A stretch of DNA of 64,000 nucleotides from an uncultured Eubacteriales bacterium (GTDB lineage Bacteria > Bacillota > Clostridia > Peptostreptococcales > Anaerovoracaceae): NCBI GenBank assembly GCA_902763505.1, contig CACWSO010000002.1:46712-110711 (forward strand), written 5' to 3'. Every line of letters starts with the position of its first letter. Position 1 is the first letter of the stretch. A model generated the notes under the pieces. That model was not told the DNA's origin. It worked only from the letters and a program-made list of their open reading frames with translations, and did not search any database. Shown here in pieces: positions 44,580-64,000 of the stretch. The translations under genes were made by a program, and so were the position numbers.

Positions 44580-44655
44580 TGGTGGAGCATAGGGGGCTCG
44601 AACCCCTGACCTCATGACTGCCAGTCATGCGCGCTCCCAGCTGCGCCAATGCCCC
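44580..44655 (-). tRNA. tRNA-Ala (anticodon GGC), CCA encoded
   Basis: The reverse complement GGGGCAUUGGCGCAGCUGGGAGCGCGCAUGACUGGCAGUCAUGAGGUCAGGGGUUCGAGCCCCCUAUGCUCCACCA folds as a 76-nt cloverleaf with the G3:U70 identity pair. Confidence 0.92.
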
Positions 44656-44658
44656 AGA

Positions 44659-44734
44659 TGGAGCCACTGGCCGGGATCGAACCGGCCACCTGCGCGTTAC
44701 GAATGCGCTGCTCTGCCGAATGAGCTACAGTGGC
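44659..44734 (-). tRNA. tRNA-Thr (anticodon CGU), CCA encoded
   Basis: The reverse complement GCCACUGUAGCUCAUUCGGCAGAGCAGCGCAUUCGUAACGCGCAGGUGGCCGGUUCGAUCCCGGCCAGUGGCUCCA folds as a 76-nt cloverleaf with one A31.C39 mismatch. The spacer to tRNA-Ala is 3 nt. Confidence 0.88.
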
Positions 44735-44766: not shown

Positions 44767-45900
44767 CTATTCTTGCATCTCCTCTATGAGCTCATCGATG
44801 TCGTTATACTGATAGGTTTCATCAGTATTGACTGTCTGAGATGAATCATTGGTAGTGCCAATCGTGAAGAAGTATATTATACCTGCAATTACGAATAATG
44901 CAATAATAATAGCAAAAATTCTAATGGCTTTTTTCAGTCTGCTCTTCTTGAGGGCTGCTTCTTCTGCCTTCGCGATATCCTCTGCTGTTTCAGCAGCAGG
45001 TTCCTCGGCCTTCGCGGCTTCTTCTGCCTTTTCTGCCTCAACAACAGGCTCTGCCGGTTTCTCTGCTTCAGCAGTTTCTGCGACTTCGGCTACCTCTGCC
45101 GGAACTTCCGCTGGCGCTTCTTCTGCCTCAGGGAGTTCGAGTTTCGGTTCTGCTGCCTCAGGGAGCTCAGCTTCCGGGATCTCGACTGCCGGTGGCTCAA
45201 CCGCTGCAGGTTCTTCCGGAACCTCTACCGCAACCGGTTCAACCTTAGGTTCCTCTGCGACAGCTTCCGCCGCAGCTGGTTCCGCAGGTTTCTCAACCTC
45301 TGCTGGTTTCTCAACTTCAGCCTCAGCCTTAGGCTCCTCAACCGGTTTCTCAGCAGGCTTTTTCTCTGCTTCCGCAGCTTTCTTTTTTCTAGACCAGAAC
45401 TTCGGCTTTTTCTCTTTTACAGGCTTCTCGGCCTTAGCAGGTTCCGCCGGCTTTTCTTCCTTCGCCGCTTCTTCCGCCTTCGTCTCAGCCTCAGCCGCAG
45501 GTTTCTCAGCCTCCGCTGCCTTCTCAGCTTCAACATCAACCGCCTCGGCCTTCGCCTCAACCGGCTTCCCCACCTTCGGCTCCGCCTTCACATCCTCGCC
45601 AGCCAACGCCGCTGCGATGGCAGCTGTGTCGATGGACTGGGTTGCACGCGCCTGCATCGCACGGCGGGCGTTCATCGCATTGATTCTCTTGAAGAGCGCT
45701 GCGATAGTCTTGCCCTGCTGCGGATCCTCGTAGAACAGCTTTACCCATTCGCCCTTGTAGCGGAATAGGAATGCTTTGTACGCCGAGGAGTGCTTGACCT
45801 GGCTGATTCCCGTATAAGAGTATACCTCGTGATCTATTGTCAGCGTCCGTTTGGAAAACTCGACGCTGTGTCCTTTCGCATTAAATTTGATCGACTCCAT
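44767..45900 (-). CDS. hypothetical membrane-anchored protein with a long Ala/Glu/Lys/Pro-rich low-complexity region
   Basis: 377 aa. It has a roughly 85-aa globular N-terminus, about 230 aa of AEKP repeats (including an 18-bp tandem at 45284-45319), one C-terminal transmembrane helix and an acidic tail. The stop lies 32 nt upstream of tRNA-Thr. Confidence 0.6.
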   Translation of the reverse strand: MESIKFNAKGHSVEFSKRTLTIDHEVYSYTGISQVKHSSAYKAFLFRYKGEWVKLFYEDPQQGKTIAALFKRINAMNARRAMQARATQSIDTAAIAAALAGEDVKAEPKVGKPVEAKAEAVDVEAEKAAEAEKPAAEAETKAEEAAKEEKPAEPAKAEKPVKEKKPKFWSRKKKAAEAEKKPAEKPVEEPKAEAEVEKPAEVEKPAEPAAAEAVAEEPKVEPVAVEVPEEPAAVEPPAVEIPEAELPEAAEPKLELPEAEEAPAEVPAEVAEVAETAEAEKPAEPVVEAEKAEEAAKAEEPAAETAEDIAKAEEAALKKSRLKKAIRIFAIIIALFVIAGIIYFFTIGTTNDSSQTVNTDETYQYNDIDELIEEMQE

Positions 45901-46121: not shown

Positions 46122-47342
46122 ATGGATAAGAGTGCTTTAAAAGACAAAAGACGTGAGACCGTTATCGGACTTCTGAAGGGAATGAACATCAAGAAAGATT
46201 CTGATGGTGGATTCGACAAAGATGATGTCTACGGTTGCATTCAGGAACTGTGCAACCTCTACGAAGAGCACATTGATGAGCTCGAGAACAACTATGAAGC
46301 TGAAATCTCCGAACTGACCAAGAGATATCAGAAGTATGACGAGAACAATGAATTGTACGTCAGCCTGATCCTCGAAGCGAAGAAGAGCAGCAATGAGATC
46401 ATCAACCAGGCAAAGACAGAAGTCGACGAGATTCTCAGAAACGGTAAGGAAAAGATCCAGGAGCAGGAAGAGCAGATGGAACAGTTCCGTATCGACAGCG
46501 AGAAGGAGAGAGATTCCGTCCTGGCTGATCTGAAGGCAAGCAAGGAAGTTGCAGACGCCGAGAAGGCTGCCATGAAGGTTGAGCTGGAAGCTGAGAAAGA
46601 GAAACTCGAAGCGACAAAGAACAAATACAGACAGCAGGTTGCAGCGATGGAAGATGAATTCGCTGAGATCAGAACCAACATTCTCAGAACATCCGCTAGA
46701 CTGGACAGCCTGAAGGCGCAGACAGAAGAGATGGCACCTTCCGTAGACTGGGAAGTTGACGAAGATGAAACAGCCGTTGAAGTTCCAACAGCAGACATCG
46801 AAGTAGATGAGTTCGCTGAGATCGAACTTCCGGAGGAGCCTGTAGAAGCAGCTCCTGTAGAAGAGCCGGTAGCATTTGAGGAACCAGTCATTGAAGAGCT
46901 TCCGGAAGAACCGGTAGAAGTTGCAGCAGAGGAGCCAGTCGAAGCACCGGCAGAAGAAGCAGCACCAGCGGAAGACCTCTTTGCAGATGCATTCTTCAAG
47001 GATGAACTCTTCGCAGACGCTCCGAAGGAAGAAGGAAACGTTGCAGCAATCGAAGAGGCACTCGCTGAAGCACCGGCAGAGGCAGCAGAAGCAGCACCTG
47101 CAGTAGAGCACGAGGCAACTGTGGAAGAACTGCTGGCAAGCATGGACGCTCTGGCAGACGATCTCCCAACTGAGGACCTCGGCGAAAAGGCAGCTGGAGC
47201 CGCTGAAGATGTAGATGCAATGCTCGATGAGATCTCATTCGACGACCTGATCGACGAAGGCGCAGAGAAAGTTGCAGAAGCTGCACCTGCAGAGGAAATC
47301 TCATTTGACAGCCTCGAAGCACTTTTCAAAAATGAACAGTAA
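46122..47342 (+). CDS. DivIVA-domain-like coiled-coil protein with an acidic Ala/Glu/Pro-rich C-terminus
   Basis: GGFDKDDVYGCIQELCNLYEEHIDELE resembles the DivIVA N-terminal motif (GYDxDEVDEFLD). A coiled-coil middle and an AEP-rich tail follow. ATG 46122 follows an AGAGGA ribosome-binding site. Confidence 0.5.
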   Translation: MDKSALKDKRRETVIGLLKGMNIKKDSDGGFDKDDVYGCIQELCNLYEEHIDELENNYEAEISELTKRYQKYDENNELYVSLILEAKKSSNEIINQAKTEVDEILRNGKEKIQEQEEQMEQFRIDSEKERDSVLADLKASKEVADAEKAAMKVELEAEKEKLEATKNKYRQQVAAMEDEFAEIRTNILRTSARLDSLKAQTEEMAPSVDWEVDEDETAVEVPTADIEVDEFAEIELPEEPVEAAPVEEPVAFEEPVIEELPEEPVEVAAEEPVEAPAEEAAPAEDLFADAFFKDELFADAPKEEGNVAAIEEALAEAPAEAAEAAPAVEHEATVEELLASMDALADDLPTEDLGEKAAGAAEDVDAMLDEISFDDLIDEGAEKVAEAAPAEEISFDSLEALFKNEQ

Positions 47343-48813: not shown

Positions 48814-48873
48814 AGCAAGAAGATAGAAGCTACAAAAGATAAAAGCCAAAGCAACATGGCTCAGGAGGACAGA

Positions 48874-50292
48874 ATGAGAATTTACAACACACTGACAAGA
48901 AGAAAAGAAGAGTTCGTACCGCAGGAGGAAGGCAAAGTCAAGATGTACGTCTGTGGTCCTACCGTATACAACTACTTCCACATCGGAAACGCCAGACCTT
49001 TTGTCGTATTCGATACCATGAGAAAGTATCTGGAGTACAGAGGATACAAGGTGAAGTTCGTGCAGAACTTTACAGATGTGGACGACAAGATCATCAACCG
49101 TGCGAAGGAAGAAGGCGTCAGCGCTGGCGAGATTTCCGAGAAGTACATCGAAGAGTACTACAAAGATGCAGCTGCCCTGAACGTCAGAAAGGCAACCGTT
49201 CATCCGAAAGTCACAGAGACCATGGACGACATCATCAAATTCGTACAGGATCTCATCGACAAAGGCTATGCCTACGAAGTAGACGGTGACGTTTACTACA
49301 GAACGAGAATGTTCGATGGTTACGGCAAGCTGTCAGGCAAGAACGTCGATGAACTGCGTCTCGGCGCCAGTGAGAGAACCAGCTCCGCCGACGACGAGAA
49401 GAAGGAAGATCCGCTGGACTTCGCTCTTTGGAAGGCGCGTAAGGAAGACTCCGAGATCGCCTGGGAATCCCCTTGGGGCATGGGCAGACCTGGCTGGCAC
49501 ATCGAGTGCTCCGCCATGTCCAAGAAGTATCTGGGAGACACCCTGGACATCCACGCAGGCGGCGAAGACCTTCAGTTCCCGCATCATGAAAATGAAATCG
49601 CCCAGTCAGAAGCGCACAACGGCAAGCAGTTCGCCAACTACTGGATGCACAATGGATACATCAATATTGACGGCGTGAAGATGAGTAAGTCTCTCGGCAA
49701 CTTCAAGACCGTGCGTGATCTGCTCTCACAGTACGACGGAGAAGTCCTGCGTTTCCTGATCCTGAGCGGACAGTATAGAGGACCAATCGACTTCAACCCT
49801 GAGATCCTGCAGCAGTCCCAGAATGGTCTGAAGAGAATGCGCAACGCCAAGTCAAACCTCAAACACCTGATGGCCAACGGCGCAGACGGCGACATGACAG
49901 CAGCCGAAGCAGAGGCAGTGGAAGGTTTCGATCAGTACAGACAGAAGTTCATCGAGGCCATGGACGACGACCTCAATACAGCCGACGCCATTTCAGCAGT
50001 CTTTGAACTCGTTACCGCAATCAACACCGCTGCAGGCGCAAACGCTACGAAGGCTTTTGCAAAGGCAGCAATGGATGTGCTCATGGAACTGGCTTCCGTC
50101 CTTGGACTGCTCCAGCAGGAAGTGGAAGAGAAGGTGGAAATCGAGCCTGAGATCCAGGCACTGATCGACGAGCGTCAGGAGGCGCGTAAGGCGAAGAACT
50201 ACGCCCGCGCCGATGAGATCAGAGACCAACTGGCAGCACAGGGTATCACACTGAAGGATACTCCGCAGGGAGTGCAGGTCATCAGGAAGTAA
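48874..50292 (+). CDS. cysS: cysteine-tRNA ligase
   Basis: MRIYNTLTRRKEEF..MYVCGPTVYNYFHIGNAR (HIGH) and KMSKS (VKMSKSLGN). Confidence 0.95.
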   Translation: MRIYNTLTRRKEEFVPQEEGKVKMYVCGPTVYNYFHIGNARPFVVFDTMRKYLEYRGYKVKFVQNFTDVDDKIINRAKEEGVSAGEISEKYIEEYYKDAAALNVRKATVHPKVTETMDDIIKFVQDLIDKGYAYEVDGDVYYRTRMFDGYGKLSGKNVDELRLGASERTSSADDEKKEDPLDFALWKARKEDSEIAWESPWGMGRPGWHIECSAMSKKYLGDTLDIHAGGEDLQFPHHENEIAQSEAHNGKQFANYWMHNGYINIDGVKMSKSLGNFKTVRDLLSQYDGEVLRFLILSGQYRGPIDFNPEILQQSQNGLKRMRNAKSNLKHLMANGADGDMTAAEAEAVEGFDQYRQKFIEAMDDDLNTADAISAVFELVTAINTAAGANATKAFAKAAMDVLMELASVLGLLQQEVEEKVEIEPEIQALIDERQEARKAKNYARADEIRDQLAAQGITLKDTPQGVQVIRK

Positions 50293-50306
50293 CAGGTCGT
50301 TCGCAA

Positions 50307-50696
50307 ATGGATTTAGCAGAAGTAAAACAGCTGAATACGGATGTGCTCGCCTACGTTGGTGACGCGGTGTATGAGCTCTTTGTCCGTGAACTGGTGCTGG
50401 AGAGCGGCAGGCACAAAGCCTCCGGTCTGCACAGGACAGTCACGGGATATGTGAACGCCCATGCGCAAGCAGCAGCGATTCGAGGTATGTTCGACAAGCT
50501 TTCGGAAGATGAGAAGAGCCTCGTGAAGCGGGCGCGAAATCACAAATTTAGATCCAAAGCGAAGAATGCTGATCCGCTGACCTACAAATGGGCAACGGGA
50601 TTTGAAGCATTTATCGGGTATCTGTACCTGGCCGGGGAAGAAGACAGACTGACCTGGGCCATGTATAAAGCGGTGGAGATTACAGATGGCGAATAA
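50307..50696 (+). CDS. mrnC: mini-ribonuclease 3
   Basis: 129 aa. LAYVGDAVYELFVRE matches the RNase III-like signature, and the gene sits in the conserved position after cysS. Confidence 0.85.
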   Translation: MDLAEVKQLNTDVLAYVGDAVYELFVRELVLESGRHKASGLHRTVTGYVNAHAQAAAIRGMFDKLSEDEKSLVKRARNHKFRSKAKNADPLTYKWATGFEAFIGYLYLAGEEDRLTWAMYKAVEITDGE

Positions 50697-50943
50697 GTAT
50701 AAGAAAAAAAGAGAAGTGAGAAACAAGTCAAAGGACTGGCTCACAGATTACTATCAGACAGGACGTGAGTGGGAAAAAGATAACCGCAGGCGCCGCGAAG
50801 AAGCAGGAGAGAAAGAAGAGAAGGGTCTTCGCAATCTCAACTCCTTCGAACTGGGCTGCATCGTGATCATCGTCCTGGCTCTGATCGGTATGTTCATAAA
50901 GTACTTCCTGTTGGGACACGGGTTCTGGACAACAGGAATTTAG
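50686..50943 (+). CDS. small hypothetical membrane protein
   Basis: 85 aa with a very basic N-terminus and one transmembrane helix (LGCIVIIVLALIGMFIKYFLL). It overlaps mrnC by 11 nt. Confidence 0.45.
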   Translation: MANKYKKKREVRNKSKDWLTDYYQTGREWEKDNRRRREEAGEKEEKGLRNLNSFELGCIVIIVLALIGMFIKYFLLGHGFWTTGI

Positions 50944-50976
50944 CTGCAAAGGCAGCGCACTACGAAAGGTAGCAAC

Positions 50977-51849
50977 ATGAGTAAAGCAGATGTTTTATTT
51001 GTAAATATGTGTCGGGATATCCTGGACAACGGATTCTCTACAGAGGGGCAGACGGTCCGCGCCAGATGGGAAGACGGAACACCTGCCCATACAATCAAGC
51101 AGTTCGGCGTGGTCAACAGGTATGACCTGCAGGAAGAGTTTCCGGCTCTGACACTGCGCCCGACATACATCAAGAGCGCAGTCGATGAGATGCTGTGGAT
51201 CTGGCAGAAGAAGTCCAACAGAACAGCAGATCTGAAGAGCGGAATCTGGGATGAATGGGCCAATGAAGAGGGAACGATTGGCAAAGCCTACGGCTATCAG
51301 ATGGCTCAGAAGTACAACTTCGCACAGGGCGAGATGGACCAGGTGGACAACGTGCTCTGGCAGCTGAAGAACACGCCCTATTCCAGACGTATCATGACCA
51401 ACATGTACAACTTCGCGGATCTCCGCGAGATGGGACTGGAGCCGTGCGCGTACAGCATGACCTTCAACGTTACACGCGAAGAAGGCGGCGGCGCTGAGGG
51501 CAAAGGCGGCAGCGGCCGCTTCGTTCTGAACGGGATTTTGAACCAGAGATCTCAGGATATTCTGGCGGCGAACAACTGGAACGTCGTGCAGTACGCGGTG
51601 CTGATCTATATGCTGGCACAGGTCAATGGCATGGTGCCGGGAGAACTGGTGCATGTCATTTCCGACGCGCACATCTATGATCGGCATGTTGATATCATCC
51701 GCGAGATGATTGAGCGTCCGCAGTATCCGGCGCCGAAGTTCAGTCTGAACCCGGAGATCAAAGATTTCTACGATTTCACAACCGACGATATCATCATCAA
51801 AGACTACAAGAAGAACCCGCAGATCAAGAACATCCCGATCGCGGTATAG
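50977..51849 (+). CDS. thyA: thymidylate synthase (ThyA)
   Basis: 290 aa. The catalytic region is LEPCAYSMTF, followed by NQRSQD. A glycine-rich insert REEGGGAEGKGGSGR lies between them. Confidence 0.9.
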   Translation: MSKADVLFVNMCRDILDNGFSTEGQTVRARWEDGTPAHTIKQFGVVNRYDLQEEFPALTLRPTYIKSAVDEMLWIWQKKSNRTADLKSGIWDEWANEEGTIGKAYGYQMAQKYNFAQGEMDQVDNVLWQLKNTPYSRRIMTNMYNFADLREMGLEPCAYSMTFNVTREEGGGAEGKGGSGRFVLNGILNQRSQDILAANNWNVVQYAVLIYMLAQVNGMVPGELVHVISDAHIYDRHVDIIREMIERPQYPAPKFSLNPEIKDFYDFTTDDIIIKDYKKNPQIKNIPIAV

Positions 51850-51857
51850 TCAGGGAT

Positions 51858-51890
51858 GAACCCCTGACCTCATGACTGCCATTCATGCGC
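51858..51890 (-). repeat. 33-nt copy (1 mismatch) of an internal segment of the tRNA-Ala gene
   Basis: gaacccctgacctcatgactgccaTtcatgcgc matches 44600-44632 (tRNA positions 24-56) in the same orientation. The single change is C32 to A in the anticodon loop. Confidence 0.95.
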
Positions 51891-51916
51891 TCTGTGGAAT
51901 AGATAAGGAGACAACA

Positions 51917-52456
51917 GTGAACGCGATTGTAGCAACAGACAGAAACTGGGGCATCGGCAAGAACAACGACCTTCTGGTCCACCTGCCGGGCGACCTCAAA
52001 TACTATAAGAAAAAGACACTGGGCAAGTGTGTCATCTTCGGACAGAGAACACTGGAATCTCTTCCGAGATCAAGGCCATTGCCGAAGAGAAACCACATCG
52101 TGCTCAGCGATGATCTAAGCTACAGTGTGGAACCAAGAGAAGGGTTCGCCTGCGACATCTGCCACACGAAGGACGAAGTCCTGGAGCTGGTTGCGGAATA
52201 TGAAGCGGCAGCCGCAGAGAGGGGTGAGGATCCGTCAGAGGCAGTGTTCATTTGCGGCGGCGCATCCATTTACGAGCTCTTCTTTGAGGATTGTGACGCC
52301 TTTTATGTGACGAGAATCGACGAGGCGTTCGACGCCGACAGATTCTTCCCGAACCTGGAGGAGAAGGGATTCGTGGTCACCTGGGAATCAGACGTGCAGA
52401 CGGATGAAGCAACCGGCATCAAGTATACCTTCAGAAAATACGAGCGCGGCGAATAA
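51917..52456 (+). CDS. folA: dihydrofolate reductase
   Basis: The GTG start lies 6 nt after AAGGAG. VNAIVATDRNWGIGKNNDLLVHLPGDLKYYKKKT is a typical DHFR N-terminus. The track start at 51872 lies inside the tRNA-like fragment. Confidence 0.88.
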   Translation: MNAIVATDRNWGIGKNNDLLVHLPGDLKYYKKKTLGKCVIFGQRTLESLPRSRPLPKRNHIVLSDDLSYSVEPREGFACDICHTKDEVLELVAEYEAAAAERGEDPSEAVFICGGASIYELFFEDCDAFYVTRIDEAFDADRFFPNLEEKGFVVTWESDVQTDEATGIKYTFRKYERGE

Positions 52457-52480
52457 GGTAAGCAGCAGACGGAGATCAAC

Positions 52481-53227
52481 ATGTCCGAAATCATAGCAGG
52501 AAGAAACGCAGTGCTGGAAGCTCTCAAGTCCGGCCGCGAAATCGAAAAAATCAATATTCAGAAACTGGAAGCCGGAGCCCATCAATCGGGCTCCGTTAAA
52601 CAGATTATCGCAAAGGCAAAGGAAGCGAAGATTCCTGTCTACCACAGCGACAAAGCCTTCATGGACAAACTGCTGGATGGAGCGAAAGTCAACTGCCAGG
52701 GCGTCATTGCCACGGCATCAGACTATTCCTATTGTGAGGTGGATGACATCCTACAGCTCGCTGCGCAGCGCGACGAGAAACCATTCGTCATCATCCTGGA
52801 TGGACTGGAGGACCCGCACAATCTCGGCGCCATTATGCGTACGGCGGAATGCGCCGGCGCCCATGGAATCATCATTCCGAAGCGCCGCAGCGTGTCGGTC
52901 AATGAAACCGTGCTGAAGACAAGTGCAGGAGCGGCGGAACACATGCTCTGCGCCAGAGTGACCAACATCGGCAGGACCATCGATGAACTGAAGAACCAGG
53001 GCGTCTGGATCTACGCCTGCGACATGGGCGACACGCTCCTGTACGATCAGGATATGACCGGACCGTGCGCCATCGTCATCGGCAGTGAAGGGTTCGGCAT
53101 CAACCGTCTGGTTCGAGAGAAGTGCGACTTCGTCATCAGCATTCCGATGAAGGGACATGTGAACTCCCTCAACGCATCCAATGCAGCGGCCATCGCCATG
53201 TACGAAGTGGTCAAGCAGCGCCTCTAA
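52481..53227 (+). CDS. rlmB: 23S rRNA (guanosine-2'-O)-methyltransferase RlmB (SpoU/TrmH family)
   Basis: 248 aa. GRNAVLEALKSG...LDGLEDPHNLGAIMRTAE...SLNASNAAAI. Confidence 0.88.
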   Translation: MSEIIAGRNAVLEALKSGREIEKINIQKLEAGAHQSGSVKQIIAKAKEAKIPVYHSDKAFMDKLLDGAKVNCQGVIATASDYSYCEVDDILQLAAQRDEKPFVIILDGLEDPHNLGAIMRTAECAGAHGIIIPKRRSVSVNETVLKTSAGAAEHMLCARVTNIGRTIDELKNQGVWIYACDMGDTLLYDQDMTGPCAIVIGSEGFGINRLVREKCDFVISIPMKGHVNSLNASNAAAIAMYEVVKQRL

Positions 53228-53273
53228 CGCAGCACCAACCCGAGCACACCACCCAAACGCACCAACACAAAAC

Positions 53274-53918
53274 ATGCTGAAAAAAGAACTCATCAACTCA
53301 ATCGAAAACCCGGAGATACAGCTTGCGGCGGAAGCCCAGGCTGGGGACGCGCTTGCCGAGGAGACCCTGATCAGAAATTACTCAGGGATCGTCTACAAAA
53401 AGGCAAGGGCCTATTTCATGGCGGGCGCAGACGCGGAGGATGTGGTCCAGGAAGGAATGATTGGACTGCTCAAAGCCGTGCGCAGTTATGATGCCGATAA
53501 GAACGCCAGCTTCGGGACCTACGCAGAGAGATGCGTCACCAACCAGATCATCAGCGCCATCCGTTCCGCGGACCGGATCAAGCATAAACCTCTGAACACA
53601 TCAGTTTCTTTGAATAAACCAGTCAGCACCGACGCGTCTTCCGGCGCGACAGATCAGTCGGAGATCACACTCGGGGATACGCTGAGCACCAACCCGGCTG
53701 ACAGCCCGGACGAGATGCTCATCATCAAAGACGTTGCCTATTATATTCTCAACAACGGCGACAATGTTTTCAGCGATCTTGAAATGAAGGTCCTCAGTGA
53801 ATACACCAAGGGATTCACCTCCGGCCAGATTGCAGAACGGTTGGGCAAAAGCAGCAAATCCGTCGACAACGCGCTCCAACGTACAAAGAAAAAAGTCAAC
53901 GCCTATCTGTGGAAGTAG
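53274..53918 (+). CDS. sigH: RNA polymerase sigma-H factor
   Basis: AEETLIRNYSGIVYKKARAYFMAGADAEDVVQEGMIGLLKAVRSYD and the position after rlmB match SigH. ATG 53274 was chosen, and no clear Shine-Dalgarno sequence precedes it. Confidence 0.8.
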   Translation: MLKKELINSIENPEIQLAAEAQAGDALAEETLIRNYSGIVYKKARAYFMAGADAEDVVQEGMIGLLKAVRSYDADKNASFGTYAERCVTNQIISAIRSADRIKHKPLNTSVSLNKPVSTDASSGATDQSEITLGDTLSTNPADSPDEMLIIKDVAYYILNNGDNVFSDLEMKVLSEYTKGFTSGQIAERLGKSSKSVDNALQRTKKKVNAYLWK

Positions 53919-57862: not shown

Positions 57863-58634
57863 CTACTATTACAAAGATAACAATATGCAATTCGGTCTGA
57901 CACCGCAGTTGCCATATTCGATCGAGGAGGCCATCAACAGACTGAGAATTAACATCTCATTCTTGGGCAGTGATGTACGCCGGATCATGGTCATCAGCTC
58001 TGAGCCGAATGAAGGCAAATCCTTCCTGAGCCTGAACCTCTGGAACCAGATGGCTCAGGCCGGGGAAAAGGCGATCCTCGTGGATGCGGATATGCGTAAC
58101 TCCAACATGGTCACCAAGTACGACATGAGGCGGGAAGACGGCAAGGAGATGAAGGGTACTTCTCATTATCTGGCAGGTAATGCAGAACTGAATGAAGTGC
58201 TTATGCACACCAAGTACGGCTACGGCGATATCATGCCGAATGTGGAGAACGTCATTAACCCATCCATGCTGCTAGAGACAAACAAGTTTGAAGAGCTCCT
58301 CGATGCGCTGGCTAAGAGATACAGATATGTCTTCGTCGATGCGCCGCCGCTGGGAATCGTATCCGACGGAGAGAGAATCGGCAACATGTGCGATGGAGCG
58401 ATTCTCTGTGTGCGCAGTGCAACAACACCGAAGGGTGTCGTCAGAGAATCCGTACACCAGCTGGAGAGAGCCGGCTGTCCGCTTCTGGGCATCGTCCTCA
58501 ACAGAGTCGATGAGAGCAAGGGCGGTTACGGCAAGTACGGCAAATACGGGAGATATGGCAAGTACGGCCACTACGGCAAGTACTATTCCGATTATTACTA
58601 CGGAGGCGGAGAGAAGAAAAAGCACCGCAAGTAA
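57855..58634 (+). CDS. CpsD/CapB-type bacterial tyrosine kinase
   Basis: Walker A is SSEPNEGKS, A' is ILVDADMRNS and B is VFVDAPPLG. The C-terminal Tyr cluster is GGYGKYGKYGRYGKYGHYGKYY. The GTG at 57855 follows a CAGGAGGAAA ribosome-binding site. Confidence 0.85.
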   Translation: MDNYYYKDNNMQFGLTPQLPYSIEEAINRLRINISFLGSDVRRIMVISSEPNEGKSFLSLNLWNQMAQAGEKAILVDADMRNSNMVTKYDMRREDGKEMKGTSHYLAGNAELNEVLMHTKYGYGDIMPNVENVINPSMLLETNKFEELLDALAKRYRYVFVDAPPLGIVSDGERIGNMCDGAILCVRSATTPKGVVRESVHQLERAGCPLLGIVLNRVDESKGGYGKYGKYGRYGKYGHYGKYYSDYYYGGGEKKKHRK

Positions 58635-59442: not shown

Positions 59443-60168
59443 TTGATAGATTTTCACACACACATTTTACCGGGAATTGACGACGGCAGCAGAGACATGG
59501 ATATGACGATCAGGATGCTCGAGGCAGAGCGTGATCAGGGCGTGACTCATATCTGTGCTACCCCGCATTTCTATGCGCACAGGAGATCTGTAGATTTCTT
59601 CTTGGAGCGGAGAAACCGTGCACTGAAAGAAGTCAGGAAAGTGCTGGCAGACAGACCGGATCTGCCGCAGATTACACCAGGAGCAGAAGTCCTCTACTTC
59701 AGAGGCATGGAACAGGCGGAACTCCTACCGGAGCTATGCCTGGAAGGCACGGACATCCTGCTGTTAGAGATGCCATTCGATCAGTGGAGTAATGAGATGG
59801 CAAAGGCAATCGAGACCATCCTCACAAAGCGCGGATTGAAGGTTGTTCTGGCACATGTGGAACGCTACCTGCGGTTTCAGAAGGACAAGGCAGCATGGGA
59901 GCAGATTTTGAACATGCCGCTCACACTGCAGATGAACGCCGAATCCTTCATCCATGCAGGATCATTCCTGAGGCAGAACAAAGAGCACAAACTGTGCCTG
60001 CAGCTGTTAGAAGAACGCAGCAACTGCATCCTTGGGACAGACTGTCATAACATGGATGAACGGAAGCCAAATCTGGCGGAGGCCAGGGCGGTGATAGAGA
60101 AGAAGACAGGGACGAAGAGATTAGAAGAGATAGATGCGTATACGGAAACGCTATTAGGTAATGAGTAA
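59443..60168 (+). CDS. CpsB/YwqE-type PHP-family protein-tyrosine phosphatase
   Basis: 241 aa with a TTG start. IDFHTHILPGIDDGS...CATPHF...AHVERY. Confidence 0.85.
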   Translation: MIDFHTHILPGIDDGSRDMDMTIRMLEAERDQGVTHICATPHFYAHRRSVDFFLERRNRALKEVRKVLADRPDLPQITPGAEVLYFRGMEQAELLPELCLEGTDILLLEMPFDQWSNEMAKAIETILTKRGLKVVLAHVERYLRFQKDKAAWEQILNMPLTLQMNAESFIHAGSFLRQNKEHKLCLQLLEERSNCILGTDCHNMDERKPNLAEARAVIEKKTGTKRLEEIDAYTETLLGNE

Positions 60169-61591
60169 TGAAGAATTGATAGAAGTGAATAGCAAGAAAA
60201 AGATACAGCAGTCAACATGGATCACAGGCTATCTGGTTGTCTATGATTTGCTTGCTGTGTCCTTTGCGTACTTTGCTGCGTTATGGCTTAGATTTGACTT
60301 ACGGTTTTCCATGATACAGCAGCCATACCTTGAGATGTGGGCCAAGTTCGCACCGTGGTATGCTGTTTTTTGTATTGTAATTTTTGCGGCCTTCAAGCTT
60401 TACAAAAGTATCTGGAGATTTGCGAGCTTTAAGGAACTGCAGCGAATTACACTCGCAACAGCAGTAACAACAGTATGCCATCTTTATGGCACACCGGCTA
60501 AGATCGATGAAATCCGCAAGATTTGTAAACAGCATGATGCATTGATTGTGCCCGTGTATTTGTCATATATTCATTCACCTTTTCATTATTCCAAAGGATT
60601 CTTTTTATTGGTTTTCAATGTTTGCATTGCCATAGTCGTAATAATTGTTGTTGATTTTGAACGTGATAAAGATGCGTTAACGCTTTTTTTTCCATTTATT
60701 ACAGCAGTACAGGCAATTATATATTTTATCGCGATCGTGACATCAAATACAATCACAACATATGGCGCAACAATAGTTGAAGGCCTAAACCACAATGCAT
60801 TTGGAATGTCTTGTGCGCAAATAGGGACGGTATTAGTTGTAAAAGCTTTTGTAATAGATAAGTATAATAATAAACTGTATACAATAGCAATATTTACAAT
60901 AAACCGAACGCTGTTGATTAAGCATAAAACACAGGGTTTTATTTCCGCTCAAAGGGATGACTTTAGAAGAGAACTTGAACGTCAAAGACACAATCAAATG
61001 TCTGCTCGCATATTGAAGCATGATATCGATAATTATATTAATTCTGTCAAAAAGCTGATCGAAGAAGGAGAGTATAACCGTGCAAATAAAATACTGGATG
61101 ATTTATCAGATAGAAACAAAGTAATAGCACCGGAAATCTTCTCTGAGGATACTTTAATCAATTCCATCTTAGTAGAATACTCTCAACGCGCTGACATTGC
61201 GAACGTGAAATTTCAATGTGAATGCAGGATCAGCGAGCCTATAGCAATCAATGATCTTGATCTTTCTGCTGTATTATTTAATGGACTTGATAATGCATTA
61301 GAGAGTAGCGAAAAAATAGAGGATCCAGATAAGCGAATGATCGACGTAAATATCTTCACCTCTATGGGCTATCTGATAGTACGAATTAAAAACACTTATG
61401 ATGCTCGTCCTATAATAAAGAATAACCATATCGCTTCAACGAAAATCAGACCCGGAGAGTCACATGGAAACGGATTGTTTAGTATGGATCTGATTGCGAA
61501 GAAGTATTTCGGCAAGAAAAATATTTATGTAGAAGGACAGTTTGTAGCATTATATGTGATCCTTAAAAACATATCTTTACCAGAGTCATAA
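60161..61591 (+). pseudogene. mosaic ORF: CapD-type N-terminal transmembrane segment, DegT-type aminotransferase fragment and truncated AgrC-like GHKL histidine kinase
   Basis: Residues 1-107 match the CapD/WbpM membrane N-terminus (LYKSIWRFASFKELQRI). HLYGTPAKIDEIRKICKQHDALIV matches an internal DegT/DnrJ/EryC1 motif. The remainder is AT-rich and encodes transmembrane helices plus KHDIDNYINSV (H-box) and an HATPase domain (GLDNALES..GNGLFSM). Confidence 0.6.
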
Positions 61592-61727
61592 CGCTTTTTC
61601 TCTTTAAAGTGCGCGCGCAAGTTATTACATGATAACGTCCAATACTATCATGTCATCTTGTGATGCGCTTTTGTCATACTATATGCTTCCATAAACACCT
61701 TCATTTATAAAGAAAGGGGGAATGCAT

Positions 61728-64000
61728 ATGGCAGTAAAGTTATTCGTTAACGGTGTTGAATACGTCACTGAAAAGGAAGACAAAACCTTACTCAAATGGT
61801 TGCGTGAAGATCTTGGACTTGTTGGAACCAAAGATGGATGTAGTCGTGGGCAGTGTGGCACATGCACAGTAATCATTGACGGCAAAGCAGTTCGCGCCTG
61901 CACGCGAAAAATGAAAATGCTAGAAGGTAAGAGTGTAGAAACGATTGAAGGCATTTCTGACGGCGAAAAACTGCATCCGATTCAAGTGGCATTCCTGAAA
62001 TGTCATGCCTATCAGTGCGGCTTCTGCACACCGGGAGTGATCATGGCCACGAAGGCACTGTTGGACAGTAATCCGCATCCGACCGATGACGAGATCAAAG
62101 ATGCGCTGAAGTTTAATATCTGCAGATGCACAGGGTATCAACAGATTCTTGATGCAGTACATTTGGCAATCGAGATTCTGGATGGAAAAGAAGTTCAGCT
62201 CTTTGGTCAGCGTGGTTGGGTTGGAGAAAGCCCGGTTACTAAAAATGGTATTCAAAGAGTTACTGGACAAGCATTATTTACGGATGATTTCAAGCTTGAC
62301 AACCCGCTGCAGGGGCGAGTGTTTTTCCCAGAATACCCACATGCCAATATTCTTTCAATTGATTGCAGTGAGGCTTTGAAACAGCCAGGTGTAGCTTTTA
62401 TTGCAACGGCGAAGGACATCTCCGGGAACAATTATTTCTCAAGTGAAAAATATCCGCAGCAGATTCTCGCAGATAAAAAGGTGCGTTATATAGGAGATCC
62501 TGTCGCAATTGTTTACGCGGAAACAGAAGAACAGGCCTATAATGCGATGCCTTTCATCAAAGTAGAGTATGAAGTATTACCTGTCATTACTACGGCTATG
62601 CAGGGAGCGAAAGAAAGCTGTCGGATCCACGAAGATACTCCTAATGAATTCTACTCACAGCACCTTTCGAAGGGGAATATTGAGCGTGGGTTTGCGCAGT
62701 CGGATGTCATTATTGAAGAAGACATTTCGACACAAATGATTGAGCATGGATGCATGGAACCTGATGCTGCATTATCGGAGCTAGATGAAAACGGCAGACT
62801 CGTTATTTATGGAACCGGACAGGATCCTACGAAGATGAAGAACGACACCGCAGCTGCGTTGGGCCTTGGTCTGGATGAATTCAGAACCGTCACCAGGCCG
62901 AGCGGCGGTGCCTTTGGCAGTAGAGAGGACCAAATGTGTCATGTCTTTGCAGCACTGGGGACTTTGAACACGAAGCGTCCTGTTCGATTCATCTTCTCAA
63001 GAAGAGAAGTCCATTTGTTTACACCGAAGAGACATCCAGTTAATTATCACTACAAAATCGGCGCAAAGAATGATGGACGCATCATGGCAGTCCAAGCAAA
63101 CACCTATGTTGATACGGGTGCTTACGCAGCCTTGGGTGATTTTCTGGTAGACACAACGACAACCATGGGTACCGGACCATATGATGTGCCGAATATTGAT
63201 ATTCAATCTCACGGGGTTTACACGAACAATGTCGTAGCTAATTGTATGAGAGGATTCGGAAGCACACAGAATACAGTTGCAATTGAGACTCTTGTTGACA
63301 GGATTTCTGAAAAAACGGGTGTAGATCCATTTGAGATTCGAATGATCAACGGTCTTGAACCTGGACGACAGACTCCTTCTGGCCAAATCATCGAATACAG
63401 CTGTGGCATGAAAGATGCTCTGAAAGCCATTAAAGAAGCTATTGAAAGAGACGGAATTCCTGAACCGTCTGGTCCAGGAAAGAAAGTCGGATTTGGTTTG
63501 GCAAATGGCTACAAAAACATGGGCTATGGCCGTGGCGATGAGGATGGGGCTGGCGCAAAGATCCATCTGACCAATGACGGCAGACTTGAGCTGTTGACTG
63601 GCGGCGTTGAACTGGGTCAGGGTCATGATACGGTAGTATGTCAGATAGCAGCAGAAACGCTTGGTGTCGGCTATGATGATATTAACATCGGTCCAGTTGA
63701 TGATGACGTATCACCATATACAACAGGAAGTACAAGTGCATCAAGAATGACATTTATTTCTGGAAATGCAGTTCGAACAGTATGCATTAAATTTAAGAAT
63801 ACATTGTTGAAATATGTTGCAGAAAAGAACAATATGTCTGAAGGTGTTCTCGATTGCGATTCAAATGGTGTATTCGATTGCAGAAAGGACGGCACATTCA
63901 GAATGTCGTTCGAAGAGATTGGTCAGATGCTCGCCGAAAATAATGATGTGCTTGAAGAAGAATACTATTACGTTGCGGTAGAGTGTTTCCGTCCAAAGGA
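61728..64000 (+). CDS. xanthine dehydrogenase-family molybdopterin hydroxylase with fused N-terminal 2Fe-2S domains (Mop/aldehyde oxidoreductase-like), 3' partial
   Basis: Read from the sequence; it is absent from the ORF track because it runs off the window. It begins MAVKLFVNGVEY..GCSRGQCGTCTVIIDGKAVRAC..QCGFCTPG..CRCTGY, followed by a Moco domain (..GGAFGSRED..). The ribosome-binding site is AAAGGGGGAA. No FAD domain lies between the two parts. Confidence 0.8.
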   Translation, partial: MAVKLFVNGVEYVTEKEDKTLLKWLREDLGLVGTKDGCSRGQCGTCTVIIDGKAVRACTRKMKMLEGKSVETIEGISDGEKLHPIQVAFLKCHAYQCGFCTPGVIMATKALLDSNPHPTDDEIKDALKFNICRCTGYQQILDAVHLAIEILDGKEVQLFGQRGWVGESPVTKNGIQRVTGQALFTDDFKLDNPLQGRVFFPEYPHANILSIDCSEALKQPGVAFIATAKDISGNNYFSSEKYPQQILADKKVRYIGDPVAIVYAETEEQAYNAMPFIKVEYEVLPVITTAMQGAKESCRIHEDTPNEFYSQHLSKGNIERGFAQSDVIIEEDISTQMIEHGCMEPDAALSELDENGRLVIYGTGQDPTKMKNDTAAALGLGLDEFRTVTRPSGGAFGSREDQMCHVFAALGTLNTKRPVRFIFSRREVHLFTPKRHPVNYHYKIGAKNDGRIMAVQANTYVDTGAYAALGDFLVDTTTTMGTGPYDVPNIDIQSHGVYTNNVVANCMRGFGSTQNTVAIETLVDRISEKTGVDPFEIRMINGLEPGRQTPSGQIIEYSCGMKDALKAIKEAIERDGIPEPSGPGKKVGFGLANGYKNMGYGRGDEDGAGAKIHLTNDGRLELLTGGVELGQGHDTVVCQIAAETLGVGYDDINIGPVDDDVSPYTTGSTSASRMTFISGNAVRTVCIKFKNTLLKYVAEKNNMSEGVLDCDSNGVFDCRKDGTFRMSFEEIGQMLAENNDVLEEEYYYVAVECFRPK

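Follow-up and report, generated by a model that had tools for sequence, protein, structure and literature searches.

A young insertion derived from tRNA-Ala(GGC) in the thyA–folA spacer of a narrow clade of Anaerovoracaceae

How does an internal piece of a tRNA gene come to lie, in antisense, between two protein-coding genes of one operon? The question is raised by the thyA–folA intercistronic spacer of an uncultured Eubacteriales bacterium of the family Anaerovoracaceae (Bacillota; Clostridia; Peptostreptococcales). We analysed this spacer within a window of 64,000 nucleotides (nt), namely positions 46,712–110,711 of the forward strand of contig CACWSO010000002.1 (GenBank assembly GCA_902763505.1); all positions given below are those of the window. 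The documented sources of tRNA gene fragments are integrases and CRISPR (PMC9897764; PMC4383910), and the anatomy found here, with an internal tRNA gene piece placed antisense in an operon spacer, is unusual and is explained by neither. The explanation that we favour, with somewhat better than even confidence, is a single and evolutionarily young copy-paste insertion of a piece of tRNA-Ala(GGC) that has been a near-neutral passenger ever since.

The spacer, 67 nt in length (51850–51916, plus strand), separates thyA (thymidylate synthase; 50977–51849, plus strand; PF00303, E = 1e-84), whose TAG stop codon occupies 51847–51849, from folA (dihydrofolate reductase; 51917–52456, plus strand; PF00186), which encodes 179 aa from a GTG start at 51917 and is preceded by the ribosome-binding site (RBS) AAGGAG at 51905–51910. 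Positions 51858–51890 of the spacer (GAACCCCTGACCTCATGACTGCCATTCATGCGC) are a same-strand copy of 44600–44632, with 32 of 33 positions identical and T51882 against G44624 as the sole difference. The latter segment belongs to an intact tRNA-Ala(GGC) gene (44580–44655, minus strand) recognized by ARAGORN and by the Rfam tRNA model (61.5 bits). The copy covers tRNA positions 24–56, that is, the anticodon arm, the variable loop, the 5' half of the T arm and the first T-loop bases, and its mismatch corresponds to a change of C32 to A. The repeat was reported in the original prediction in these same terms, and sequence matching and ARAGORN bear it out, as they do its placement, from the ninth nt past the thyA stop to 26 nt ahead of the folA GTG. 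The claim that such a match could not be due to chance also stands: a second copy was found in none of 100 dinucleotide-preserving shuffles. Over 44600–44635 and 51858–51893 the identity is 34/36, the highest among the listed repeats of at least 30 nt whose copies lie several kilobases apart. The minus strand holds the tRNA gene and the tRNA sense of the copy, the plus strand thyA and folA; consequently, the thyA–folA mRNA carries the complement of the tRNA and not a tRNA-like sequence.

The insert is a genuine feature of the genome. The ThyA protein of the window is encoded on 23 contigs of public assemblies, and four loci from different ENA samples (L081–L084) are 99.98–100% identical to the window over 17–21 kb (L081, 100%; L082–L084, 99.98–99.99%), with the spacer and the tRNA gene both identical to those of the window. 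An assembly chimera, which had been named as the finding that would undo the original prediction, is ruled out by the identical spacer in these independent assemblies and by the presence of the insert in two diverged lineages described below. A dispersed repeat family, similar to repetitive extragenic palindromic (REP) sequences or miniature inverted-repeat transposable elements, was also considered and rejected: there are two copies within the 64 kb, and the junction patterns had no matches in the viral and JGI metagenome collections.

The age of the insert follows from its distribution among closer relatives, which were reached by a FolA homologue search and by exact-protein look-ups. It is present in L096 (94.7% nucleotide identity to the window over 6.2 kb) and L098 (93.7% identity). 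It is absent from L094/L095, the lineage of L089, at 88% identity, where the spacer reads TAG-AAAACCCGCAGATTGCGGTA(C/T)AAGGAGATAACA-GTG, and from more distant relatives, of which L001 has a 36-nt spacer and L002, L003 and L090–L092 have shorter or unrelated ones. This comparison of spacers among relatives, proposed along with the original prediction, finds the insert only in the window lineage, L096 and L098. The outcome that had been listed as adverse, absence of the fragment from all close relatives, was seen by half: it is absent at 88% identity and below and kept in two sisters at about 94%. Distances at four-fold sites (0.177, 0.187 and 0.102) yield the tree (window,(L096,L098)). The presence of the insert in the window and both sisters and its absence at 88% identity and beyond show that it arose in a single event, in the ancestor of this narrow clade and after the 88% lineage had branched off; at least three lineages have inherited it.

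The same relatives resolve the insert into its parts. Over the shared part, the core is identical to the tRNA gene in L096 and L098 (33/33), and both have G at the site of position 51882, as do the tRNA gene and all 81 metagenomic copies of the core that we analysed (see below). As both sisters match the tRNA exactly, T51882, which falls in the equivalent of the anticodon loop, is a later point mutation of the window lineage alone, and the insert in its first form had no mismatch to the tRNA. To the right of CATGCG, the window and L096 continue with CTCTGTGGAATAG and L098 with TGCACTGCGGAGTAG. The ACTGCGGA stretch of L098 is also found in L001 and, in part, in L094 (TGCGG). Being common to L098 and L001, it identifies the right part of the spacer as ancestral and puts the end of the tRNA-derived block at about tRNA position 22–24. 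This ancestral right part (51891–51916), with its ACTGCGGA-like motif and the RBS, differs among the lineages.

Could the fragment be a scar of the event that brought thyA and folA to this place, as had been proposed? The gene order, established from Pfam, the precomputed gene annotation (the source for PHP) and tblastn, is ybaK-like, tRNA-Ala, tRNA-Thr and orf377, all on the minus strand, followed by orf406, the phosphoribosyltransferase (PRTase) gene, PHP, cysS, mrnC, orf85, thyA, folA, rlmB and sigH. In a species-representative set, which lacks the window's own species, the best matches are to Anaerovoracaceae/Family XIII (Emergencia, Brotomerdimonas, Gallibacter, Mogibacterium and Anaerovorax), with a top ThyA identity of 92%. 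From there down to 68% ThyA identity, the order cysS–mrnC–thyA–folA–rlmB(–sigH) is kept in most of the ~40 related loci, a few having extra genes or a shuffled order. No fragment was found outside tRNA genes in 80 ThyA-related genome loci. Compared with the cysS–mrnC–rlmB order of Bacillus, thyA–folA do look inserted, and that is what speaks for a placement scar. Against it, the placement between mrnC and rlmB is found in most of the ~40 loci, including those of Mogibacterium, Anaerovorax, Emergencia and Brotomerdimonas, all without the fragment, whereas the insert is confined to a clade with at least 93.7% nucleotide identity. We give such a scar, like the chimera, practically no credence.

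The arrangement itself deserves a remark. In most Anaerovoracaceae loci examined, thyA–folA lie between mrnC (Mini-RNase III) and rlmB (48856–53918 in the window; L001–L045). In Bacillus, cysS, mrnC, rlmB and sigH are contiguous, and the thyA–folA pair looks like an old, family-wide insertion into that cluster.

The spacer that received the fragment is hypervariable. Its length ranges across the family from 0 to 272 nt and it is mostly short and unstructured, with 0–20 nt and no hairpin in most members; among the insert-free relatives it measures 33 nt in L089/L094, 36 nt in L001, and 10–20 nt in L090–L092 and L003. Four loci (L015, L021, L022 and L029) have large insertions between thyA and folA that contain a second mrnC-like open reading frame (ORF) and other ORFs; in this listing of ORFs, for which no family search was made, no link to the tRNA fragment was seen. 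In L089/L094, the filler of the spacer includes the 9-mer CCGCAGATT from the 3' end of thyA, which occurs twice, 38 nt apart (L094:4142–4174, also in L095). This is suggestive of a local duplicate of the thyA 3' end (estimated chance ~0.01–0.03) and may be the product of another templated insertion here, independent of the first. The filler pairs with the ancestral TGCGG to form a small hairpin, CCGCA-GAT-TGCGG (−6.3 kcal/mol). Evidently, the thyA–folA spacer tolerates and accumulates short insertions. The idea of a recurrent hairpin at this site was dropped, as small hairpins occur only in the nearest relatives and are absent from most of the family.

If not a scar, is the insert the mark of an integrase? 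It resembles the attachment (att) repeats of Islander-type islands and phages (PMC4383910; PMC9897764) in being a partial, non-functional tRNA copy in direct orientation, and differs from them in lacking the tRNA 3' end, in lying on the 5' side of the intact gene and in having no integrase or island. Its homology to the tRNA ends at position 56 (at most ~62–65 if indels are admitted). The tRNA 3' end is at 44580, and the copy at 51858 is found on the other side, beyond the neighbouring tRNA-Thr(CGT) gene (44659–44734, minus strand; ARAGORN and Rfam), where an att repeat would be placed downstream. Between and beside the copies there is no integrase or mobile element: the interval consists of PRTase, PHP, cysS, mrnC and thyA, and Pfam detected no integrase among the ORFs tested in 43.9–53.2 kb. 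In L001, L003 and L007, tRNA-Ala occupies the same upstream position and the 7.2-kb interval is syntenic, with no copy in the spacer. The interval, being syntenic, integrase-free housekeeping DNA, is thus not a mobile element, and a reading of the two copies as attL and attR of an element spanning 44.6–51.9 kb was rejected. The original prediction, too, had held a simple attL/attR explanation to be a poor fit, rightly so in view of the missing tRNA 3' end, the position on the 5' side of the gene and the synteny in repeat-free relatives.

Real att sites of this tRNA are available for comparison. In two IMG/VR contigs of temperate phages, a tRNA-Ala(GGC) fragment lies beside integrase genes: in L085 (424–2450), positions 23–76 adjoin a tyrosine integrase, a PD-(D/E)XK nuclease and a CI-like repressor, and in L086 (28–751), positions 19–76 adjoin a tyrosine integrase. 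Both fragments comprise the 3' 54–58 nt of the tRNA and agree exactly with its type in this host (acceptor GCATAG, D stem GCGC); the tRNA-adjacent region of the two is likely to be attP. A census of tRNA fragments in 2.1 Mb of collected loci added further att-type fragments starting at position 23 (L115, L146), 31 (L104, twice), 32 (L111, L163) and 34 (L167). All 9–10 att-type fragments seen reach the tRNA 3' end, at position 76 wherever the contig allows, and the only internal fragments in the census are those of the window clade (22/24–56) and of L204 (~38–64). Thus, elements often integrate at tRNA-Ala(GGC), and the boundary at position 23, with which the right end of the insert coincides, recurs among their fragments.

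A more elaborate version of the integrase explanation takes the insert to be an att relic, or a secondary attB or decoy for tRNA-Ala(GGC) phages, that C32 to A would inactivate by altering the putative overlap. For it speak the tyrosine integrases next to the same type of tRNA 3' fragment in L085 and L086, the other att-type fragments with their starts at 23 or 31–34, the boundary at ~23 that the insert has in common with L085, L115 and L146, and the inclusion of the whole anticodon stem-loop, where integrase crossovers are usually located as a general principle (PMC4383910). The boundary coincidence (22–24, within ±2 nt), however, has a chance of ~5–7%, and every att-type fragment reaches the 3' end, whereas the insert stops at 56 and lies on the wrong side of the intact gene. 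Moreover, no integrase or phage DNA is found nearby, the interval has no presence/absence polymorphism, and integration at a secondary site followed by excision would not leave a contiguous 23–56 block. Scans of 2.9 million viral contigs for both spacer junctions were empty, which also disposes of a phage vehicle; of the four viral matches to the core, those in L085 and L086 are att sites and those in L087 and L088 are full tRNA genes. A scan of JGI metagenomes for the spacer junction was likewise without a match. On balance, we consider an att relic or decoy site improbable.

The preferred explanation, a templated insertion, requires that the inserted bases be a copy of pre-existing sequence that the outgroups lack at this site, and this is what is found, with 33/33 matches in L096 and L098, 32/33 in the window, and outgroups without the insert. 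From which gene was the sequence copied? The original prediction took the tRNA gene 7.2 kb away as the source. That gene remains a plausible donor, although identity alone cannot name it, as the 32-nt core is widely conserved in tRNA-Ala(GGC): a metagenome scan for this core returned at least 120 stretches, and 77 of the 81 copies analysed lie inside intact tRNA-Ala(GGC) genes. These come from very diverse metagenomes, in many cases of soil or another non-gut origin, and the commonest flanks are GGGGGATC and CTCTCCCA. With one gap allowed, the L096 spacer aligns to the canonical tRNA-Ala(GGC) at 41 of 42 positions (GGGAT-GAACC...CATGCGCTCT) and to the local gene at 39 of 42. The L098 junction (CATGCGTGC) is a better fit to the local D stem (GCGCGC). 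We abandoned the attempt to name the donor from flanking bases, since the 3-nt TCT extension towards the canonical type is probably derived from the ancestral ACT of ACTGCGGA. Look-ups of the exact PRTase and YbaK-like proteins, made to reach the tRNA region of L096 and L098, returned only the window's own lineage. On these data, the local tRNA-Ala(GGC) is an economical and plausible candidate, since it shares both cell and orientation with the insert, from which it is 7.2 kb distant.

As to how the sequence was copied, we infer that a templated insertion in the course of replication or gap repair is most likely. In the ancestor shared by the window lineage and its two sisters, the nascent strand would have left the hypervariable thyA–folA spacer, copied part of a tRNA-Ala(GGC) template, most economically that of the gene 7.2 kb upstream in the same orientation, and returned, writing ~33–41 bp into the spacer (positions ~22/24 to 56 and perhaps a mangled remnant of the T arm). 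The left junction may preserve traces of a further step. The 8 nt to the left of the core (51850–51857; TCAGGGAT), which are included in the two L096 alignments given above, contribute to a predicted 7-bp stem. The hairpin GTCAGGG-ATGAAC-CCCTGAC (51849–51868, plus strand) has a 6-nt loop, arms at 51849–51855 and 51862–51868, and as its first base the last one of the thyA stop codon; the upstream hairpin of the original prediction is therefore real and slightly longer than described. Its left arm, GTCAGGG, is not tRNA-derived and yet is perfectly complementary to the tRNA-derived CCCTGAC. A short fold-back step during the insertion may have produced this perfect inverted repeat, GTCAGGG being then a snap-back copy of CCCTGAC; alternatively, GGGAT in the left flank, which is the canonical GGGATC less 1 nt, may be what is left of the T loop and the 3' T stem. 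Mutation by template switching, in which inverted repeats are created or made perfect, is documented in bacteria (PMC7202029; PMC5941160). With the quasipalindrome and ectopic-template mutations described there, the insert shares the copying of several nucleotides in one step and the perfect short inverted repeat GTCAGGG/CCCTGAC. In the classical cases, however, what is copied lies no more than a few tens of nt off, in the same hairpin, whereas the putative template of the insert is foreign or lies at a distance of 7.2 kb, 33 or more nt were copied and no clear microhomology is seen at the junctions.

Has the insert since acquired a function? As a result of the insertion, the mRNA would have gained two hairpins between the thyA stop and the folA RBS, and the insert would have remained a passenger thereafter, with probably little or no effect on expression. 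The first hairpin, described above, is present in the minimum free energy and centroid structures and is identical in L096 and L098. The second, CATGA-CTGCCAT-TCATG (51871–51887, plus strand), is the complement of the anticodon arm and has 5 bp in the window; in L096 and L098 it has 7 bp and a 3-nt GCC loop, G51882T having removed two potential pairs in the window with no compensating change. The predicted folding energy of the spacer RNA is −16.4 kcal/mol in the window and −20.6 and −20.9 kcal/mol in the sisters; the respective z-scores of −0.8 and −1.9 are not significant. The RBS is unpaired in every predicted fold. No promoter-like or terminator-like site was detected in the spacer on either strand, and an intrinsic terminator or attenuator is ruled out by the absence of a U-tract after a hairpin, hairpin 2 being followed by CGCTCTGTGG.

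The most serious rival explanation is that the hairpins were exapted as an intercistronic module and are kept for use in the mRNA, where the proposed roles are a block to 3' exonucleases that stabilizes the thyA part, a site for RNase III or RNase Y, or looser translational coupling between thyA and folA. In E. coli, REP-type intercistronic stabilizers set differential mRNA stability in operons. The insert resembles them in placing stable hairpins right after the upstream stop codon of a two-gene operon, with no terminator U-tract; it differs in being single-copy, clade-specific and of tRNA origin, with most relatives hairpin-free. Consistent with such a module, both hairpins are predicted in the minimum free energy and centroid structures of all three lineages, the non-tRNA GTCAGGG is a perfect complement of its tRNA-derived partner, and the nearest insert-free relatives have small hairpins of their own at this place (L089/L094, CCGCA-GAT-TGCGG; L001, GCAG...CTGC). 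Also, the first 39 nt of the spacer contain a single variable site across the three lineages, where the four-fold rate predicts 6–9 (Poisson P = 0.001–0.014). On the other hand, change is equally slow in the operon's other four spacers, which show 7 events in 117 nt (Fisher P = 0.68 against the core), and no selection is therefore claimed despite the four-fold-site P values. The stems show no covariation: there is no compensatory change in the three lineages, and the one substitution, that of the window itself, breaks a pair and weakens hairpin 2. Together with the non-significant z-scores, the unsequestered RBS and the hairpin-free spacers of 0–20 nt in most of the family, this makes an exapted module rather unlikely, if somewhat more credible than an integrase relic.

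A role at the level of RNA is much harder to sustain. The anti-tRNA stretch of the mRNA could pair with mature or precursor tRNA-Ala(GGC), or transcription of the minus strand could yield a tRNA-derived small RNA; the 33 nt of near-perfect complementarity between mRNA and tRNA and the retention of the stretch in three lineages are in keeping with this. However, no minus-strand promoter-like site is found within 50600–52600, which leaves the antisense small RNA of the original prediction without support. The same is true of the tRNA-like processing element suggested there. As noted, the mRNA holds the complement of the tRNA; the insert has no acceptor stem, D arm or T-loop consensus and, although it resembles tRNA-like structures and RNase P/Z substrates in bringing tRNA-derived sequence into an mRNA, it is not matched by RF00005 or ARAGORN. 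No Rfam family matches 51850–51916 on either strand at E ≤ 10, and ARAGORN reports only the two genuine tRNA genes, so that a tRNA or tRNA-like structure was rejected as a candidate. Mature tRNA, for its part, is tightly folded and modified, and long antisense pairing with it is unlikely; the segment itself is predicted to be locked in hairpins and is confined to one narrow clade. In our view there is very little chance of an RNA-level regulator. We regard as equally far-fetched the more general proposal that a captured tRNA gene piece would act as an mRNA-embedded anti-tRNA sponge or as a DNA-level decoy attB for tRNA-Ala phages.

Several observations weigh against a near-neutral templated insertion and must be set beside the evidence for it. 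There is no clear microhomology at either junction: the similarity is weak, amounting to G[C/T]ATAG near the thyA stop and a 1-nt snap-back overlap, and the junctions of L096 and L098 differ. The 8 nt left of the core fit neither the T-arm remnant nor the snap-back version cleanly, and the flanks point both ways on the donor, that of L096 slightly to the canonical type and that of L098 to the local gene. The core is less variable than the right part of the spacer (1/39 against 7/30 variable columns; Fisher P = 0.008 with every column taken as independent), a difference that weakens to P = 0.16 when the L098 changes are grouped, as several of the right-hand differences may be one complex event in L098. 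This lower variability would be compatible with weak constraint, or with gene conversion in which the tRNA gene is the donor. Finally, the insert is carried by three lineages only, so that its neutrality is inferred.

One tangible consequence of the insert concerns the start of folA. It has introduced a spurious in-frame ATG (51872–51874, plus strand), from which some gene callers extend FolA to 194 aa; for identical DNA, the protein is called at 194 aa in some assemblies and at 179 aa in others. In L098, the same ATG opens an ORF of 10 codons that ends at a TAG ahead of the RBS. Since this ORF stops before the RBS, the 194-aa extension is not real and represents an annotation artefact.

The tRNA genes have features of their own. 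The local tRNA-Ala(GGC) has C32 and G38, a potential Watson–Crick 32–38 pair; in E. coli, these positions are A32 and U38. Both tRNA genes (44580–44734) are on the minus strand of a window in which the plus strand carries most genes and the cumulative GC skew climbs from end to end; transcription of the tRNA-Ala/tRNA-Thr pair probably runs against the replication fork, an uncommon arrangement for tRNA genes. In L082 and L083 (3636–3764 in both), a 42-aa ORF has been called over the two tRNA genes, a gene-calling artefact.

Elsewhere in the window, the ORFs at 44767–45900 (minus strand, 377 aa) and 46122–47342 (plus strand, 406 aa) are divergent and have no significant Pfam family, the latter giving only a sub-threshold DivIVA match. 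Both contain internal low-complexity repeats rich in Ala, Glu and Pro (families D4, D6 and D9; inverted repeat I1) and are conserved in the nearest relatives only. An ORF of 85 aa (50686–50943), which overlaps the end of mrnC just upstream of thyA, also has no Pfam family; it is present in L001–L003 and L007 and was not detected in more distant loci of the family, and its exact sequence occurs in 206 blocks of the public assembly index. At 58527–58585 there is a tandem repeat of a 9-nt unit (TACGGCAAG-like, ~6 copies) that would encode a Tyr-Gly-Lys repeat if translated in frame. The G+C content of 60001–64000 is 0.39–0.45, compared with a window average of ~0.51; the drop is found just past genes of capsule and cell-envelope type (LytR, Wzz, CpsB) annotated at ~56–60 kb, and this segment may be horizontally acquired DNA.

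What does the insert mean for these bacteria? The practical effect is the false in-frame start that lengthens FolA by 15 residues in some annotations. Its importance would be greater only if an effect of the hairpins or of the anti-tRNA stretch on thyA–folA expression or phage integration came to light; were the sponge or decoy true, it would link the metabolism of nucleotides and folate either to tRNA status or to the integration of phages. If the near-neutral templated insertion that we favour is correct, this locus offers a clean and datable natural case of templated ectopic insertion in a bacterium, complete with outgroups, two sister lineages and a later point mutation, and it would indicate that a partial tRNA gene need not stem from either of the sources named in the literature on such fragments, integrases and CRISPR (PMC9897764).

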